Below, piece after piece: positions 5,842 through 41,949 of a stretch of 41,949 bases of DNA. The notes beneath the pieces are model-generated. The model saw nothing but the letters and a program-made list of their open reading frames with translations, ran no database searches and was not told the DNA's origin. The position numbers and the translations under genes were made by a program. Source of the DNA: a virus (Duplodnaviria > Heunggongvirae > Uroviricota > Caudoviricetes); IMG/VR virus record IMGVR_UViG_2558860473_000005, positions 1-41,949 of that record; one strand, given 5' to 3'. Position 1 is the stretch's first letter, and each line of letters begins with the position of its first letter.

Positions 5842-6123
5842 TCATGATTTACTCTCCACGAACTGGTCAATAGCCATGCTAAGTGACACACCTAAAGTCT
5901 CGATATGCTGCTGAATATCCTGTAGCGTCTGCGCCTGAGATAACAGGATTTCACGGTTGCATAATTCTTTAACCAGATGCTCAAACTTGCTGTAATAACC
6001 GATACGGCTTAGTGTTTCTTTCCCTGCATTCTCGCCTTCTTTGATAATTCCTCTTTCACTAAGAATCAGGTCGTGTTTGGTTCCGGTAATAACGTATTTT
6101 CCGAGGTCGATGTTTAGCTTCAT
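5842..6123 (-). CDS. Hypothetical phage protein, 93 aa
   Basis: ORF in the leftward operon with consistent spacing to neighbours. Confidence 0.5.
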
Positions 6124-6139
6124 TGTTAATTATTCCATG

Positions 6140-6454
6140 TTAATTTATTCGTATGCCTGCTCTTTCTTCATCGAGTTTTTTTAGCTTGTATCGCATAGCT
6201 CTTACTGAATAAATTGAGCGGCAGGTTGCAATTGCTATTTCTTCTGCGGAGAACTTACCGAAAAGTGATACTTCGGCTCTTGTCCATCGTCTTCCACGAA
6301 GTCGGCTAACAATGTCAGCGCCAATCCTTGTTGCTTTCGCCATTACTGCTTTTTCAGTCCTTTCCAGTTTTTCAGCGATAACTTCAACTGGCATTGTTGC
6401 CGCTACTTCGCGCAAGAAATCGACTTCCCATTTCTCCCAAGGAGTCTTTTTCAT
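6140..6454 (-). CDS. Hypothetical protein, possibly a tandem Myb/SANT-like DNA-binding fold, 104 aa
   Basis: Two repeated W/R-rich helical segments; inference only. Confidence 0.45.
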   Translation of the reverse strand: MKKTPWEKWEVDFLREVAATMPVEVIAEKLERTEKAVMAKATRIGADIVSRLRGRRWTRAEVSLFGKFSAEEIAIATCRSIYSVRAMRYKLKKLDEERAGIRIN

Positions 6455-6465
6455 AGGCGATACCG

Positions 6466-6954
6466 TTATTTGATAAGAAGTGAAGGTTTCCCAACTTTGA
6501 GTTGAGCGCCGGGGATATTTATTCCTGCTTTTAGTTGGTGTTTGATTGCCAGTTTGTCGGCTTTAATTGTCGTTTCAAACTCAACGTATTCAGGAGGAAG
6601 GGCGCTTGAGTCGATTATTTCTACAATTTCTGATGGTTTGCGGATTGTTACCTGGTGAATACCTGCTCGAATCTTTTTCTTGCCAACCATTTCAAGCGAT
6701 GAGGCTATATATGCCATAATGCTATCAATCTTATTTTGAATTACTGCTGCTCGTTCATTCAGTGACTTTGCCTCGTCCTTGAGGCGTTCAGCATAACCAG
6801 ATTCATTTTTAATAATGGCAAGAAGTTGCTCTATTTTATCGGTAAATTCTCCTTCCATGCCTTCTATTGTGTCAGCAATCATCTCTGGTTCTAAATCTGA
6901 ATCCATCAATTTTGCGTATTCATTGGCTATTTCATATAGTTTGCTCACTGGCAA
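6466..6954 (-). CDS. Siphovirus Gp157-family protein (companion of RecT-type recombinases), 162 aa
   Basis: Recalled family similarity; overlaps the RecT gene stop as in phage recombination modules. Confidence 0.65.
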   Translation of the reverse strand: MPVSKLYEIANEYAKLMDSDLEPEMIADTIEGMEGEFTDKIEQLLAIIKNESGYAERLKDEAKSLNERAAVIQNKIDSIMAYIASSLEMVGKKKIRAGIHQVTIRKPSEIVEIIDSSALPPEYVEFETTIKADKLAIKHQLKAGINIPGAQLKVGKPSLLIK

Positions 6955-7834
6955 CCTCCAGTTTCGCTTTGCATTCTATGTAAATGGCTTGTACGTTCTG
7001 CTGCAATTTCATTCCAGATGTCAGGCGATATGCTTCTGCAAAATATCGCTTCAAATCATCCATGTTTTCTGCCTGAGCCATTTCATCACAAAGAAGTTGT
7101 GCTTTTTCCATAATTTCCTGCTGGCGTTTCCGTTCATCTTCGCGGATATCTTCCTCTGATTTGTGCGGCATAACTGGTTCCTGATGCATACCTTCATCCT
7201 CGTTAAGCAGGTGAATGGCATTATCCAGTCGCTGGGCTTTAGGCCAGTATTTGCTGGCGCGTTTAACTATTGTTTTACGCGCCATCTCTTCCCAGAATGT
7301 TTTCCACGGTCCATTCTTTGCCTTGCTCGTTGCTTCCACAGCTTTAATTTCTGCCAGACTCATTTCTTCAGTCAGGTAGTCACCATCTGCTGTTTTAACC
7401 GTGCAATAACCTCCAACAATAGAGCCTCGCTCACCAAATGCGTTGTATTTGTGGGTTGGTGCTGAATCAAGGCCATTTGATTCATAGGTGTCGTTTGAGT
7501 ACACCAGTTTGCATTGCCCCCACTTAATTGATCCTGTCGATTGCGCAAGATGAAGTAATCCCATGTAACTGATATCAAGGCACACCATGCCGTCGCGAGG
7601 AACCAGATAAGCCAGTTTGCTGGCCGGGTTTAAGGTGATGCCGATCGCCGCAACATTGATGATGGCGTTCTGTGCGCTGGTTGGATTTGCCAGTGCCGTT
7701 TTAGCCAGGTAATCATTTTTCTGGAAATACTGAATTGCAAACTGGCTTTCCTTAGCCCATGTCACCGTCTGTTCAGTCAATGCTCCGCAGAATAACTGCT
7801 CCTGCTGTTTAACGAATTCAACGATATTGCTCAT
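6932..7834 (-). CDS. recT: RecT-family single-strand annealing recombinase, 300 aa
   Basis: Conserved RecT-like core (LAYLVPRDG...); position matches lambdoid recombination modules. Confidence 0.8.
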   Translation of the reverse strand: MSNIVEFVKQQEQLFCGALTEQTVTWAKESQFAIQYFQKNDYLAKTALANPTSAQNAIINVAAIGITLNPASKLAYLVPRDGMVCLDISYMGLLHLAQSTGSIKWGQCKLVYSNDTYESNGLDSAPTHKYNAFGERGSIVGGYCTVKTADGDYLTEEMSLAEIKAVEATSKAKNGPWKTFWEEMARKTIVKRASKYWPKAQRLDNAIHLLNEDEGMHQEPVMPHKSEEDIREDERKRQQEIMEKAQLLCDEMAQAENMDDLKRYFAEAYRLTSGMKLQQNVQAIYIECKAKLEVASEQTI

Positions 7835-34978: not shown

Positions 34979-35311
34979 TTAATCATCCATGGATGGATTG
35001 AGCTTATCTCGTGTTGATGTGGCGGTTTTCCCTACATTCCTAAGCCAAGCTTTCAAATCCTTGATATTGTCATTGATTTCATGAATATCTTCCTTTTTTA
35101 ATCTGTCAATATTATTTTCAATAATTTCAATGGATTGCTCAATATCAGATATAGTGAATGATAGTTTGCTCTTCTCATCTGTTATTGAGTTTTTAAGTAC
35201 TTCGTTCTCAGTCTTGAGGTCAGATATCTTTTGCTTTAAAGATGCCAGTTGGCACTGAACCACAATGAGTGCGATAGCTATCACGACAAATGTTGCATAC
35301 ACGCTAACCAC
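34979..35311 (-). CDS. Membrane-anchored coiled-coil protein (N-terminal TM helix then coiled coil), 110 aa; cassette gene C
   Basis: Hydrophobic YATFVVIAIALIVVQ segment followed by heptad-like K/E-rich sequence; GTG start; AT-rich by eye. Confidence 0.55.
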   Translation of the reverse strand: MVSVYATFVVIAIALIVVQCQLASLKQKISDLKTENEVLKNSITDEKSKLSFTISDIEQSIEIIENNIDRLKKEDIHEINDNIKDLKAWLRNVGKTATSTRDKLNPSMDD

Positions 35312-35322
35312 CTTGGTTTTAT

Positions 35323-35676
35323 CTACTTGAGGACTAATCCGTTAAGTGCATCAAGGATTTTAGATACGTAACTACCGAAAATGTAGGTGCAAAAAGCAAA
35401 AACAACCGTGACGACAGCACCGATAGCCTTAATGGTTGTTTTCATTGTGGTGATACTAGTTTCAATACTGCTAAGCCTGGTGTCAATTGACTTCACGTCT
35501 TTTTGAATGATCTCAATGTCACGCTTGATATAGCTGACATCAGACTCTAACTTTGCGACCCTTGATTCCATGCCATCACCTCCTTCGCCTCCAGACCTGT
35601 TCTTATCCTTTGTGTTCTCAGGATGGATACGAGATATGTTTTTTTCACTAATTGATGTTTCAATTATATCAAGCAT
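35323..35676 (-). CDS. Tail-anchored coiled-coil membrane protein (XhlA-like architecture), 117 aa, or 82 aa from the internal start at 35571; cassette gene B
   Basis: Coiled-coil segment then C-terminal hydrophobic helix AIGAVVTVVFAFCTYIFGSYV; strong GGAGG RBS before the internal Met; 8-bp overlap with gene A if the long start is used. Confidence 0.55.
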   Translation of the reverse strand: MLDIIETSISEKNISRIHPENTKDKNRSGGEGGDGMESRVAKLESDVSYIKRDIEIIQKDVKSIDTRLSSIETSITTMKTTIKAIGAVVTVVFAFCTYIFGSYVSKILDALNGLVLK

Positions 35677-36079
35677 CTTTCACATGACTCACGGAAAAGT
35701 AGGCTTGCGCAGAATGCACTAGAGTGTTGTCTTTGCTGATGGATACTCGAATTAAGTAATCCCCGTCAGCATCAAGTTTGCATTTATCGAAATGCATAGA
35801 CATCGATGTTGCCAAGGTGTTCCTGATCTCATTGTGTCCTTTTGCCTTAATCCATACGCCTTTATCACCGCTTACACTGATTTCTAACTCATTCTCGATT
35901 CTATAGAGACAAGCTGAAACCCAATATGGTGTATCATGAATTAAACCGAGAAAGTGAACCTGAAAATCAAGGTCAGTAGTCACAGGTAACTCATCTGTCT
36001 CCATGATTAACATGGGTGATTTTTCATCATTTTCAGACTTATGGTAAGGAAAAAGGAATGCTATTTTTTCAGTGTTCAT
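35669..36079 (-). CDS. Hypothetical soluble protein, 136 aa; cassette gene A
   Basis: Start overlaps the mnt stop by 4 bp (translational coupling); no recognisable family. Confidence 0.55.
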   Translation of the reverse strand: MNTEKIAFLFPYHKSENDEKSPMLIMETDELPVTTDLDFQVHFLGLIHDTPYWVSACLYRIENELEISVSGDKGVWIKAKGHNEIRNTLATSMSMHFDKCKLDADGDYLIRVSISKDNTLVHSAQAYFSVSHVKDA

Positions 36080-36641: not shown

Positions 36642-37532
36642 ATGTCAAGCTTAGCAAAGTCAACTGTAAATTGCACTAATAGCATCATCATTTCTGACGT
36701 CAAGATTCATATGGATTCAGAGGGGCGTTACTCGCTTAATGACCTTCATGTAGCGTCTGGGAAGGAGGAAAAACATCAGCCAGCTTTCTTCATGCGTAGA
36801 AATGAAACTATTGAATTAATTAATGAAATTTTTAATTCTGCGGATATGCAGAATAAGAATCCCGTCCTTTCTAAGAAAGGTCGATATGGTGGAACCTACG
36901 TGTGCAAGGAGCTTGTTTACTCCTACGCCATGTGGATTAGTGCATCCTTTGCGCTGAAGGTTATCCGTGCATATGACGCAATGGTTACTGCCACACAAGA
37001 TAGGAAGGCTATTGGAGGTAAAACTTCAGTAGCTGAACGCACACCGCTACGAGATGCAGTAAACATGCTGGTAGGAAAGAAAGGACTTCGCTATGACGAT
37101 GCATACAATATGGTTCATCAGCGTTTTGGTATTGACAGCATTGATGAACTTTCAATTGAACAAATCCCGCTGGCCGTAGAGTACATCCACAGGGTAGTGC
37201 TTGAAGGTGAGTTCATTGGCAAACAAGAGAAGAAAACCAACGAGCTTTCTGCAAAAGAAGCAAACAGCCTTGTATGGTTATGGGATTATGCCAACCGTTC
37301 ACAGGCATTATTCCGCGAACTGTATCCGGCGCTAAAACAAATTCAATCGAACTATTCCGGCAGATGCTACGACTACGGTCATGAGTTCTCGTATGTTATC
37401 GGAATGGCGAGAGACGTTTTAATAAACCACACACGAGATGTTGATATTAATGAGCCAGACGGACCAACGAATCTTTCCGCATGGATGAGACTTAAGAATA
37501 AAGAATTACCTCCTTCAGTACATAACTACTGA
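36642..37532 (+). CDS. ant: Antirepressor Ant (KilA-N domain N-terminus), 296 aa
   Basis: KilA-N-like segment ([24 protein letters not shown]...); downstream of arc as in P22 immI; GAGGT RBS. Confidence 0.8.
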
Positions 37533-37632: not shown

Positions 37633-39441
37633 ATGACAGATTCAATAAATGCCAATGTTGTAGTGAGCATGCCATCGCAACTCTTCACTATGGCTCGTTC
37701 TTTTAAAGCCGTAGCCAATGGCAAAATTTATATCGGTAAAATTGACACTGACCCGGTAAATCCTGAAAACCAGATTCAGGTTTATGTAGAGAACGAAGAC
37801 GGCTCTCACGTTCCTGTTTCTCAACCAATCATCATTAACGCTGCTGGTTACCCAGTATATAACGGACAGATTGCCAAGTTTGTAACCGTGCAAGGCCATT
37901 CTATGGCTGTTTATGATGCGTATGGTGCACAGCAGTTTTATTTTCCTAATGTGCTGAAGTATGACCCTGATCAGTTTGGTCCAGACTTCAAAGAGCAGTT
38001 ATCTCAATCAGGGGAATACATTAATGATGATTCAAAAGGTGATGCATTAATTGGCGTAAGACAGCCCGTTGCCGGGTCGGTAGCTATCACACAGCATGAT
38101 AAAAACGCACAAATAATCAACTTAAAAGATTTTGGTGCTAAGTGCGATGGTGTAACTGATGACACAGTGGCAATTCAGGCTGCTGTAGCTGCTGCGCATA
38201 CTGGTGTCCGTATAGTTCAACCTGCAGGGGTTTGCCTTACATCTCAGCCGTTGTCATTCACTAGTCCTGCATTTTGGTATGGAGATGATGGCGCTCGCAT
38301 TAAGCTCATTAGTGGCAGTCATGACTATGTTATGGAAATTGATCTTCGCGGGCCTAGTGGTTCGTTCTGGGGTTATGGGTCACATATTGAAAACATTATC
38401 TTTGATGGTGGTGGTCACGCAAAAGATGGCCTTTCATTGCGTGGTGTTATCGGAGGTATATTCAAAAATATTCGTGGGACAAATATATCAAGGACCGCTA
38501 TTCATGAATGGTGGACCCAACTTTGCCACTATGAAAATATTCAATGCAGTAATAATATTGAAGCATTCCAAACAACCCCTATTCACGGAATCTTATCTGA
38601 TTGTGAGTTTGGAACTGGTAATGATCGTGGGTCTTCTGCAAATACTTACATGAATACCACTATTGAACATACCTCTGGTAGTGGGATTTGTGGGGTGTTT
38701 ATGTCTAATTGTACATTTATAAATGGCACATCAGAAGGTAACGATATTGGCATTGAGTTTGGTCACGCTACTGATGATAGAAACCAATCAGTTGGGAATT
38801 CAGTTATTGGCATGGATCTTGAAGTTAATTCTTTAACTGATGTGTTATTACATAAAACAACATATGCAAATGACTTTATTGGTCTAAAAGCTGGTTATTC
38901 ATCTCCAGCCATTCAGGTGCAAGGCTCATATGCTAATAGCTTTATTGGTGGAGTAAGCAGTGGTATAGATTTTGACTCATCATCGCATGATAATAAAGTA
39001 ATAGGTATGAATCTTTTAGGCAACGATTCTATCATCGTAGATAACGGGTTAAGAAATTCATATGAGAATATTTTCAATATTTCATCTGGAGCTAAAAAAG
39101 AAAGCACTAACCCTTATCCATCGCGTAGCAACAATATAATTTCATCAAATGGTACTGTGCAAATTAACCCATTTTTATCATCATACTGTGTTGTGTCGGC
39201 TACTGGTTCACCAATTAATGTTACGTCTGTAGCAAAAAAATTAGACGGTGCGACTATTGATATGACTATTCATAACATTTCTGGATCTGATGAATTAATA
39301 GTAAACTGGTCTTCTGACTTCAGAGTTTCTGGATGGACAAGCCCGGCAACAGGGCGCCACCGGTCTATAAGATTTGCTTATGATGCAAACTACGGATACT
39401 GGACTGCTATATCTATGAGTCAGTCAGATATTCTGAACTAA
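37633..39441 (+). CDS. Tailspike protein: P22-type N-terminal head-binding domain plus divergent beta-helix receptor-binding domain, 602 aa
   Basis: First ~115 residues match the P22/Sf6 tailspike N-terminus by recall; the rest has repetitive G/N/S/T-rich strands typical of parallel beta-helix depolymerases. Confidence 0.85.
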
Positions 39442-39453
39442 GATTTATGCTGT

Positions 39454-39476
39454 GGGGGGGATTATTCCCCCTGTTT
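39454..39476 (+). terminator. Terminator between the convergent tailspike and acyltransferase genes
   Basis: Hairpin GGGGGG-attatt-CCCCC followed by TGTTTTACTTT; overlaps the acyltransferase stop. Confidence 0.55.
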
Positions 39477-40595
39477 TACTTTCCTCATATCCACCAGTTT
39501 ACCAGGGATGCTCATAAATATCTTATTTCTAATCTTGTTAGTAAGTATCACTTCAATATATTTATGCGAAAGAAATGCAATAAAAATTGATAAAATTAGT
39601 AAAATAGTGAACCCGTATACATTGTGCATCACACCTGGATTATTAGCCTCAACCTGCCATGAAATGTAACTACCTACCTGGTTATGAAGCAGATACCATG
39701 AGAAGGAAATATCACCAAGCATTACAAAAAATGATGGTGTAATTTTTGTTATAACTTCATCATTTATTACGAACGCCACTAAGAGGAAGTATGCAATGAT
39801 GCCTGTCTTTAAATTATAACCTTCAATAGAACCATTGAAGACTGCAGTCATAAAAATTAATGCCGATATAGCAGTGAATGAGTATTTTAATCTATTGCTC
39901 CATGATTTTGCTGAACGCACTGTGTGCCCAGCAAGGATGCCTAAAGCAAATTCAATTACTATCGGATTTGTTAAAAAGCTAAGTTCTGGAGTACCAGTTT
40001 TATAACCTGAAGTGGATAATGTTACATTTCCAGTCAACATATATCCTACAAGGATAGTTGTCATTATCCATACGACTATGCCAGAGGTTCTTTTATTGAA
40101 TAATAAACAAAGTGCGAATACAAGATAGAAGTATAATTCATAGTTAAGCGTCCATCTAATAACAAATATACCACCAGCATCAACATACAAAGGAGGGTAC
40201 GCATCCGTAAAAGGAGAGAATGTTAAAGCACTCAGTAAGTTTTCCACCTTAGCTTGGTCAACGAAGATTCCAACTTCCCATGTAAAGTAGAAAGCTGTAA
40301 AGAGAGCAATAAAATATGTAGGAAAAATCCTTGTGAGTCTTTCTACGGAAAAGAATATAGCAGACTTTATACCAGATGGCTTACGGCTAGTGATATGCAT
40401 CATAATAAAACCACTTATTACGAAGAACAAATCAACACCAGCAGAACCCCAAGATAAATATTTATTAGGGATAGTTAAATCTCCATACAATGGTGATAAC
40501 CAAAATCTGTAGTGAAAAAGAACTACAGACAATGCAGCTAATCCTCTAAGTATCTGTACTGAGCTAAGTTTATTGTTCATTATTAAACCGATCAC
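39462..40595 (-). CDS. Acyltransferase family 3 (OafA/Oac-like) integral membrane O-acetyltransferase, 377 aa
   Basis: Multi-TM protein with acyltransferase-3-like N-terminal motif (ILRGLAALSVVLFHY); very AT-rich by eye; between tailspike and int, as oac is in Sf6. Confidence 0.75.
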   Translation of the reverse strand: MIGLIMNNKLSSVQILRGLAALSVVLFHYRFWLSPLYGDLTIPNKYLSWGSAGVDLFFVISGFIMMHITSRKPSGIKSAIFFSVERLTRIFPTYFIALFTAFYFTWEVGIFVDQAKVENLLSALTFSPFTDAYPPLYVDAGGIFVIRWTLNYELYFYLVFALCLLFNKRTSGIVVWIMTTILVGYMLTGNVTLSTSGYKTGTPELSFLTNPIVIEFALGILAGHTVRSAKSWSNRLKYSFTAISALIFMTAVFNGSIEGYNLKTGIIAYFLLVAFVINDEVITKITPSFFVMLGDISFSWYLLHNQVGSYISWQVEANNPGVMHNVYGFTILLILSIFIAFLSHKYIEVILTNKIRNKIFMSIPGKLVDMRKVKQGE

Positions 40596-40791
40596 TTTCT
40601 GTAAATGTCATTCACATGATTATGCGATAAAATCCATAGTAATCCATTATAAATTTTTCTATATGAAACATAAGAAAAATTCACTGAGTTGTTGAATTGA
40701 TACATCTCATCTTTCAACGACAATGTCTACAAAACACACAAAGCTTTGCACTGGATTGCAATGATTTGTGTCATTCGATAGTTAATGTGGA

Positions 40792-41949
40792 TCACTCCAC
40801 CTTTTCATCAAGCCAGTCCGCCCACCATTGCATCATTTCTCTGCGCTTATCGAGATACTGAGCATGGTTGTAAATCCCGCGCACAGAACCGCCGTTGGCA
40901 TGTGCCAGCTGCACTTCAATAGCGTCAGCAGGCCATTCGTGCTCGTTCATAATCGTGCTGAATTCATGCCTGAATCCGTGACCGCTTTCCAGACCTTCAT
41001 AGCCGATTTGTTTGATCACAAGCAATACCGCGTTCTCGCAGATTGGCTTCTTCTTATCGTTGCGCCCGGCAAAAACAAACTCTGAGACTGGTTTGGTGAT
41101 TGAGCTTAGCGTAGTGAGAAGTTCAACTACCTGGTCTGACATAGGAACCACATGAATTTTGCGTCCCTTCATCACGCTGGCGTCGATGGTGATAATCCTG
41201 TTTTCAAAATCGACGTTCTTCCATAGCATAGAACGAAGCTCTTTCGTTCTTAGGGCTGTGTAGCGTAAAACTTTGGTCGCAATGAGCGATACGATACTTC
41301 CTGAAAATGTTGCCAGTGCTTTGTTGAATGCCGGGATCTGGTCTGCAGGAAGAAACGGGAAGTTCTTCTTGCGGTATCCTTTCATGGCGTCAGCAAGGTC
41401 AGGTGCCGGGTTATATTTAGCCCTGCCGGTGACAATAGCGTAACGGAAAACCTCGCCGCATCTTCTGCGGGCTTTATTGGCTCGTTCCATTGCACCGCGA
41501 TCTTCAAATCTGCGGATTACTTCCAGCAGTTGCATTGGCTCAATATCCTGAATTTCAAGGCCGCCGATGATAGGTAAAATGTCGTCATCAAACATTTTTG
41601 CAAGTTCAGTCGCATACCCTACTGACCATACTTGCTTCTTGTGCTCGTACCATTCCTTGTAAATCGCACTAAAGGAATTGTTGTTAGACGAAGCCTTTTT
41701 CGCCTTTACCGGATCGATGCCAACCGAGATGTCTTTCCTCGCGGTCCATGCCTTATCCCTTGCCTCCTGCAAAGTCATAAGCGGATATTTTCCTACGGTC
41801 AGTATTTTTTCCTTACCGTCAATCTTGTAGCGAAGCTGCCATACCTTTTTCCCGGATACAGGGACATAAAGGTACAGGCCATTACCATCGAGAAGGCGGT
41901 ATGGTTTTTCTTTCGGCTTTGCTGCTTCAATCTGCTTAACGGTGAGCAT
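40792..41949 (-). CDS. intS: Tyrosine integrase (P4-type phage integrase family; IntS/Sf6 Int-like), 385 aa
   Basis: N-terminal SAM-like domain and C-terminal catalytic domain with conserved R...HGFRH...Y residues; start codon at the last 3 nt of the window. Confidence 0.85.
   Translation of the reverse strand: MLTVKQIEAAKPKEKPYRLLDGNGLYLYVPVSGKKVWQLRYKIDGKEKILTVGKYPLMTLQEARDKAWTARKDISVGIDPVKAKKASSNNNSFSAIYKEWYEHKKQVWSVGYATELAKMFDDDILPIIGGLEIQDIEPMQLLEVIRRFEDRGAMERANKARRRCGEVFRYAIVTGRAKYNPAPDLADAMKGYRKKNFPFLPADQIPAFNKALATFSGSIVSLIATKVLRYTALRTKELRSMLWKNVDFENRIITIDASVMKGRKIHVVPMSDQVVELLTTLSSITKPVSEFVFAGRNDKKKPICENAVLLVIKQIGYEGLESGHGFRHEFSTIMNEHEWPADAIEVQLAHANGGSVRGIYNHAQYLDKRREMMQWWADWLDEKVE

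Follow-up and report, generated by a model that had tools for sequence, protein, structure and literature searches.

A temperate P22-like coliphage recorded in IMG/VR (IMGVR_UViG_2558860473_000005) carries a gene for an acyltransferase-3 (AT3) membrane protein between its tailspike and integrase genes. Here, we show by comparing the whole 41,949-nucleotide (nt) stretch of this record, referred to below as the window, with related phages, prophages and bacterial genomes that the receptor-binding part of the tailspike and the AT3 gene are physically co-inherited as a block of about 2.5 kb, present on several phage backbones and in three bacterial genera. The AT3 protein is probably an O-antigen acyltransferase, most likely an acetyltransferase, that would mask the receptor of the tailspike and so bring about superinfection immunity and a change of serotype. 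The features concerned are the following, with position 1 being the first letter of the window:

37633..38033, plus strand: N-terminal head-binding adaptor of the tailspike (PF09008 Head_binding, E 2e-65)
38034..39441, plus strand: receptor-binding part of the tailspike, with the start of a pectate-lyase-like beta-helix (PF12708 at residues 161-219); first half of the mobile block
39452..39474, no strand assigned: G/C hairpin from the terminator scan, terminator of the tailspike gene, followed by a T-run on the plus strand
39462..40580, minus strand: AT3-only acyltransferase gene, ATG at 40580, 372 amino acids; second half of the mobile block
40581..40666, minus strand: conserved 5' leader of the AT3 gene, a presumed promoter as read from the sequence
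40792..41949, minus strand: IntS-type tyrosine integrase with Pfam integrase domains, for the argW tRNA-Arg site

Outside the window, the block or parts of it were found in these loci:

L002 and L003: Escherichia coli P22-like prophages beside ybhB-bioA, sharing window positions 37200/37618-40875 at 98.8-98.9%, AT3 included
L004-L008 and L115-L117: Salmonella enterica P22-like remnants at argW, with amino acid identities of 88% for the receptor-binding part and 78% for AT3
L009: siphovirus-type prophage of an enterobacterium other than E. coli, receptor-binding part 79%, AT3 79%
L020, 5808-8085: Citrobacter meridianamericanus, AT3 intact (78%), tailspike truncated and frameshifted (residues 294-602)
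L118: phiV10/TL-2011b-like (Uetakevirus) E. coli prophage, receptor-binding part 99%, AT3 98%

The limits of the block are sharply drawn in L118, where the DNA in common with the window is exactly 38034-40571 (97.7% identity) and comprises the receptor-binding part, the hairpin and the AT3 coding sequence only. The tailspike of this prophage (691 amino acids, P0186) has a different N-terminus, its flanks are 89-93% identical to phiV10 and TL-2011b, and in those two phages the slot of the block is occupied by a tail fibre gene and oac. A sister prophage on the same backbone (L119) has a receptor-binding part that is 59% identical and an unrelated AT3 (25%); here, backbone homology breaks off within the tailspike gene, about 175 codons short of its end, and restarts at the holin gene. 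In the siphovirus-type prophage, the tailspike stands in a setting with a GpJ-like tail tip and a Tail_spike_N adaptor, and its N-terminus is unrelated to that of the window tailspike despite the identity of the receptor-binding parts. The host of this prophage is probably Citrobacter: its flanking genes are 78% identical to E. coli and members of the cluster are named Citrobacter. The Salmonella enterica remnants have a head-binding part that is only 66% identical, with AT3 again convergent with the tailspike, and in Citrobacter meridianamericanus AT3 has outlived the phage. Taken as a whole, the block reaches 77-80% identity in Salmonella and Citrobacter prophages. Two IMG/VR contigs contain the receptor-binding part, and both carry AT3.

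The two E. coli prophages beside ybhB-bioA retain an 84-nt stub of the 3' end of IntS upstream of AT3 (7702-7790 in L002/L003), so their tailspike-AT3 block came from an argW-type phage like that of the window. At the Salmonella argW locus L004, and likewise in L115-L117, two different AT3 genes lie in tandem (5952-7043 and 8001-9188 in L004) with an integrase fragment between them; a resolvase-like helix-turn-helix gene and an intact IntS come next. The second L004 gene (363 amino acids) is 26% identical to the window AT3 and 65% to that of L119, and the locus looks like stacked prophage ends. Among phage contigs more widely, the downstream neighbour of AT3 family members is convergent in 32 of 42 loci, and at least 18 of these 42 neighbours are tail-fibre-assembly, tail-fibre or tailspike genes (Caudo_TAP in 10, Phage_fiber_2 in 6 and Head_binding in 2, plus others). 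A general rule that the AT3 family adjoins receptor-binding genes fails for chromosomal homologues and for those of 62-63% identity, and is confined to phage-borne members.

The sequence-only reading of this DNA had described a polytopic membrane protein of 377 amino acids with acyltransferase-3 features, a description that family searches, hydropathy and a predicted helical model bear out. The protein matches PF01757 (Acyl_transf_3) with E 6e-23, scoring 81.9 bits where the cut-off is 31 and covering positions 3-323 of the 326 in the model, and it matches phrog_3333, labelled 'O-acetyltransferase', over its full length (E 2.3e-89); no model in NCBIfam gives it a named family. Bacterial AT3 carbohydrate acetyltransferases have the motifs R/K-X10-H in the first transmembrane helix (TMH1), FFXISG in TMH2, and RXXR, of which the His and both Arg are essential (Pearson et al., PMC7448272). 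All three motifs are present in the window protein, as R12 and H23 (R17 and H28 when counted from the GTG start discussed below), as F52-F53-V-I55-S56-G57 (FFVISG) and as R81-L-T-R84, and an alignment of 59 homologues of 35-79% identity shows no variation at R12, H23, F52, F53, I55, S56, G57, R81 or R84. Hydropathy peaks agree with a polytopic membrane protein, and the AlphaFold model made from the same alignment is nearly all helix (predicted local distance difference test, pLDDT, 85.6; predicted template modelling score, pTM, 0.86).

The ten best matches of this model in a Foldseek search of the PDB are all human HGSNAT, an acetyl-CoA transmembrane acetyltransferase, with probability 1.0, template modelling scores (TM-scores) of 0.40-0.50 and E-values of only 1e-3 to 2e-2. 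These matches fit the proposed TmAT superfamily (PMC12423673), and the model agrees with an AT3/TmAT fold of about ten transmembrane helices. A sequence search of the PDB with the AT3 protein gave no match, and there is no AT3 protein proper among the solved structures. Neither an SGNH domain, an 11th helix nor a second Pfam domain is found in the protein, which ends about 30 residues past the AT3 domain. Because the SGNH domain is absent, it is an AT3-only enzyme, like Oac and unlike OafA/OafB.

Is the gene functional? The sequence-only reading had left room for a frameshifted remnant. Instead, the open reading frame (ORF) is intact, and since a 100% identical AT3 protein is encoded on one IMG/VR contig, the gene is not frameshifted. 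Between lineages that are near synonymous saturation, the ratio of nonsynonymous to synonymous divergence (dN/dS) of AT3 is 0.05-0.12, which argues for a functional gene under strong purifying selection; the ratio of the receptor-binding part is 0.11-0.12. The 90%-identity cluster of AT3 comprises 40 member sequences, and the members listed are recorded on up to 55 contigs. Near-identical DNA occurs in none of 50,697 phage records and, for the AT3 part, in none of 5,426 complete RefSeq E. coli genomes. The marked AT-richness that had been judged by eye is borne out by the numbers: the GC content is 34.5% in the AT3 ORF, 47.8% in the integrase gene and 47.4% in the remaining window. At third codon positions (GC3), AT3 (0.298) equals the tailspike gene (0.299) closely.

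The ATG at 40580 is the start used by near-identical public proteins (P0001, 99% identity). An alternative GTG at 40595 gives 377 amino acids (39462..40595, minus strand), a gap of five residues that is immaterial. The leader contains two -10-like hexamers, CATAAT (40619-40624) and TATAAT (40646-40651), of which the CATAAT is unchanged across five lineages (alignment A6). It also holds a short upstream ORF (40596-40666, minus strand; MDYYGFYRIIM, then stop), which in Salmonella is brought in frame by a 1-nt difference, with annotated proteins of 395-408 amino acids as the outcome. Because the in-frame leader ORF arises from this one difference, the N-terminal extension is probably not real, and translation would start with ATG or GTG at the MNNK/VNNK position. 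As to phase-variation signals of the Dam/OxyR type, only two GATC sites are present, about 200 nt apart and unconserved in other lineages.

AT3 is on the minus strand and lies, as the sequence-only reading had it, between the tailspike gene (37633..39441, plus) and the integrase gene (40792..41949, minus), from which a spacer of 211 bp separates it; no other ORF between the two genes matches a family, the rest being short overlapping frames. In Sf6, the order is tailspike (plus), terminator, oac (minus), oac promoter and IntS (minus), with attP upstream of int. The order and orientation in the window are the same, so AT3 stands in the classical oac slot, and the integrase is 99% identical to Sf6 Int; this is the Sf6-like layout of an oac gene next to int that the earlier reading cited. 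Over 69-77% of a 24-kb query, the backbone matches CUS-3 and Kapi1 at 95-96% identity. A start codon marks either end of the window (a phrog_17800 ORF at base 1 and the integrase ATG at 41949), so the window is a provirus trimmed at gene edges, with the attP region outside.

AT3 and the tailspike had further been described as convergent and as sharing a terminator hairpin. Convergence is evident from the opposite strands (37633..39441, plus, against 39462..40580/40595, minus), whereas the shared hairpin holds in part: the AT3 stop codon (39462-39464) does sit inside the hairpin loop, but no T-run follows on the AT3 strand, and by its sequence the hairpin is a canonical terminator for the tailspike only. 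The terminator scan made seven overlapping calls in this region, against 0.7 expected by chance, and the hairpin with the stop codon in its loop is kept, with stem-preserving changes, in the E. coli, Salmonella, Citrobacter and siphovirus-type copies.

The head-binding adaptor of the tailspike is specific to the P22-like backbone and lies outside the mobile block, and the tailspike resembles Sf6 gp14 and the P22 tailspike over residues 1-188 only. No solved structure matches the receptor-binding part by sequence, and because structure matches stop at residue 188, no specificity can be read from them. Among lytic phages of known serogroup, none with the same receptor-binding part was found; the best reach 57% (hz69, GZMU_E2010) and 46% (Kuttervirus TSP2), too distant for their specificity to be transferred.

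A natural variant of the locus is provided by E. coli QML220601, an O15 strain with the same tailspike (99%) followed directly by intS, an orthologue that abuts tRNA-Arg (argW) and yfdC. The difference from the window is one segment:

39487..40776, no strand assigned: 1,290 bp missing from QML220601 (alignment A1, blastn and an alignment of the 3' junction)

The junction shows a 2-bp microhomology, and 25 nt from the 3' end of the AT3 coding region survive in the scar. The tail encoded by these retained bases (…DMRKVKQGE) is conserved in homologues of other genera, GKLVDMRKVxQG being native to the family, which indicates that the ancestor of QML220601 had AT3 and has since lost it. The opposite polarity, in which QML220601 would be the empty site and the 1,290 bp an insertion that gave AT3 a chimeric C-terminus, is ruled out by the conservation of both the tail and the stop-in-hairpin arrangement in the Salmonella, Citrobacter and siphovirus-type copies. 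The O15 cluster of this strain has an ISAs1-family transposase gene at its head, between galF and wzx (L014, 6467-7603), which might affect O-antigen expression.

Which O-antigen could be the target? QML220601 carries O15-family wzx and wzy, fnlA/wbjC/wecB of the L-FucNAc pathway and two glycosyltransferases. Salmonella GCA_005450625.1 combines the tailspike-AT3 pair with a wzy that is 51% identical to O15 wzy and flanked by a GT2 gene and gnd, and in further Salmonella with an O15-like wzy the gene set is that of E. coli O15. Look-ups of O15 Wzy homologues against AT3-bearing assemblies gave no shared assembly; the link to GCA_005450625.1 came via the tailspike look-up. We regard an O15-type target as a lead, offered by the gene content of two genomes. 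The O15 repeat is Gal-L-FucNAc-GlcNAc, common to Salmonella arizonae O59 and a Citrobacter O-antigen. The structures of Salmonella O59 and E. coli O15 are reportedly linked in the title of one paper.

Taken together, these comparisons suggest the following course of events. AT3 would be expressed from the prophage, perhaps through the conserved leader with its CATAAT at 40619-40624. The AT3-only enzyme, residing in the inner membrane, would draw an acyl group from cytoplasmic acyl-CoA through a transmembrane pore and place it, on the periplasmic side, on a repeat sugar of the host O-antigen, probably of the E. coli O15 type. O-antigen modified in this way would no longer be efficiently bound or cut by the co-encoded tailspike, and the lysogen would be immune to superinfecting phages with the same receptor-binding domain and altered in its serotype. 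Precedents are given in PMC9558356, where the Oac of Sf6 is reported to block the endorhamnosidase of that phage and the Oac of phiV10 to acetylate O157 and confer immunity. The sequence-only reading had likewise proposed modification of the host O-antigen or another surface glycan that the tailspike recognises, and it gains comparative support from the oac slot, the catalytic motifs, the purifying selection and the co-inheritance with the receptor-binding part; the chemistry, with acyl donor and acceptor sugar, as well as lysogenic expression and the exclusion phenotype, we infer. It is possible, although we put this forward tentatively, that 38034-40571 is a 'recognise-and-mask' cassette which moved as a unit among P22-like, phiV10/epsilon15-like and siphovirus phages of E. 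coli, Salmonella and Citrobacter, following one O-antigen chemotype, that of E. coli O15 and the antigens related to it in Salmonella and Citrobacter. If true, the AT3 partner would predict the specificity of the tailspike, and vice versa. Intact AT3 next to a decayed tailspike suggests that the host also benefits.

A number of observations weigh against such a role. Outside phages, the closest relatives, at 62-63% identity, occur singly on chromosomes, away from any phage genes; homologues of 29-47% identity in 41 species-representative genomes have heterogeneous neighbours, and most of these homologues do not adjoin a phage receptor-binding gene. Cargo genes in general tend to gather where the late operon ends, so that adjacency alone is weak evidence. 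Upstream of AT3, the scan called no consensus sigma-70 site on the AT3 strand. Orthology to characterised O-antigen acetylases was not detected in a comparison with the Oac proteins of Sf6, D3 and phiV10. The O-serogroup link involves two genomes, one of which has lost AT3 while the other has a wzy only 51% identical to that of O15. Between the window and Salmonella, the synonymous divergence (dS) is 1.44 for AT3 and 0.56 for the receptor-binding part; being unequal, these values imply that the two halves of the cassette have not always had a common history. The inequality could stem from recombination within the cassette, or from mutational or codon constraints that differ. Finally, Kapi1, a close relative at argW, has an acyltransferase-like gene (hyp24) at the same position, overexpression of which left the lipopolysaccharide (LPS) ladder unchanged. 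Kapi1 is absent from the tblastn matches of AT3, so hyp24 is not a detectable homologue of the window gene, and O-acetylation need not shift the LPS ladder.

How do these observations bear on other explanations? AT3 might acylate another envelope glycan, such as enterobacterial common antigen (ECA, as WecH does), capsule or colanic acid, or osmoregulated periplasmic glucan (OPG, as OpgC does), with its place beside the tailspike owed to the cargo hot spot. The targets of AT3-only proteins include many glycans (PMC9558356), source records call one homologue OpgC and others ExoZ, and the distant chromosomal homologues are unlinked to phage receptor-binding genes; the receptor-binding part, moreover, has no solved relative from which the substrate of the tailspike could be read. 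Nonetheless, we consider this explanation unlikely, as AT3 changes together with the receptor-binding part on a constant backbone (L118 vs L119) and stays with it when the backbone changes, a serotype-like pairing that a pan-enterobacterial target such as ECA or OPG would not need. In addition, the same slot houses proven O-antigen acetylases in Sf6 and phiV10.

Alternatively, the enzyme could modify the O-antigen without blocking its own tailspike, and serve to exclude other phages, to vary the antigen of the host or to create the very epitope that the tailspike binds. Selection at the level of the host, not tied to the phage, is suggested by the intact AT3 beside a broken tailspike in Citrobacter meridianamericanus and in degraded Salmonella remnants, and QML220601 retains its prophage despite the loss of AT3. 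We judge this quite improbable, since Sf6 and phiV10, which provide the precedents for this slot, are both self-immunising, and the pairing with one receptor-binding type is most simply understood as an action on the ligand of that domain. That AT3 is AT-rich cargo, either silent or in decay and without function today, would agree with its GC content of 34.5%, the lack of a consensus promoter, its absence from the 5,426 complete RefSeq E. coli genomes and its deletion in QML220601, but seems very improbable to us for a gene that matches its family model over the full length with all catalytic motifs present, that maintains a dN/dS of 0.05-0.12 across near-saturated lineages, whose 5' leader is conserved and whose 90%-identity cluster spans 40 sequences, with listed members on up to 55 contigs.

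Elsewhere in the window, three small ORFs (110, 117 and 136 amino acids; 34979-36079, minus strand) have a GC content of 0.37-0.40, and their matches are limited to PHROGs of unknown function. With the gene of a gp16-like ejection protein on one side and arc/mnt-like regulators on the other, they are a possible further cargo or exclusion cluster. P22 keeps sieA in what we take to be the corresponding region.

If AT3 is indeed an O-antigen acyltransferase that masks the receptor of its tailspike, the E. coli O15-type antigen would be its candidate substrate, and the enzyme is apparently uncharacterised so far. Phage-borne O-antigen acetylases alter serotype, vaccine epitopes and phage susceptibility. 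As a genomic rule, the pairing of receptor-binding part and AT3 could predict the glycan of an orphan acyltransferase, and which prophages exclude which therapeutic phages, and the natural deletion in QML220601 is a ready-made control.

Compared with characterised systems, the architecture of an AT3-only gene beside a receptor-binding protein gene and the int end is that of the Sf6 and phiV10 Oac type. Sf6 Oac, an AT3-only protein that converts serotype Y to 3b, shares with the window gene the slot, the orientation and the catalytic motifs within Lederbergvirus. Its identity to the window AT3 is 26%, over the N-terminal 190 residues only (333 vs 372 amino acids), the Sf6 endorhamnosidase is unrelated to the window receptor-binding part beyond residue 188, and the host glycan is that of S. 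flexneri Y for Sf6 and probably of the E. coli O15 type for the window. In phiV10 and TL-2011b (Uetakevirus, epsilon15-like), a convergent AT3 gene directly follows the receptor-binding protein gene, as in the window, and the annotation of phiV10 oac gives O-antigen acetylation, with superinfection immunity, as its role; phiV10 Oac, on a different backbone, has no significant pairwise similarity to the window AT3 (E 2.6), and the TL-2011b protein is 25.6% identical. The Oac of Pseudomonas phage D3 (orf28) is likewise a phage-borne AT3-only O-antigen acetylase with a role in serotype conversion (27% identity over 77% of the query), although it does not lie beside a tailspike and belongs to a phage of a different host genus. 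D3 oac is part of a three-gene conversion module.

Salmonella OafA and OafB (GtrC family II) have the R/K-X10-H, FFXISG and RXXR motifs in common with the window AT3 but are AT3-SGNH fusions, whereas the window protein has neither the SGNH domain nor the 11th helix; OafB is associated with a prophage remnant. P22 gtrABC is a conversion module near the tailspike/att end that alters the phage's own O-antigen receptor, as proposed for the window AT3, but works by glucosylation through undecaprenyl phosphate glucose (Und-P-Glc) with three genes, and no gtr genes lie between the window tailspike and integrase. The label 'Oac/OafA-like' given from the sequence is therefore apt for the AT3 family, the motifs and the Oac-type, AT3-only build, and not apt if taken to mean an orthologue of Oac, OafA or GtrC. 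By its sequence, the window AT3 belongs to a different AT3 subfamily, an analogue rather than an orthologue of characterised Oac.

In conclusion, phage AT3 O-antigen acetylases in a tailspike-int or tailspike-lysis slot are an already known kind. As a study of Klebsiella prophages has linked acetyltransferases with capsule type (PMC13123978), the general idea is current and not new. What the window adds to these systems is a mobile two-gene cassette formed by AT3 and the receptor-binding part of the tailspike, a natural deletion strain in QML220601 and a candidate O15-type target.

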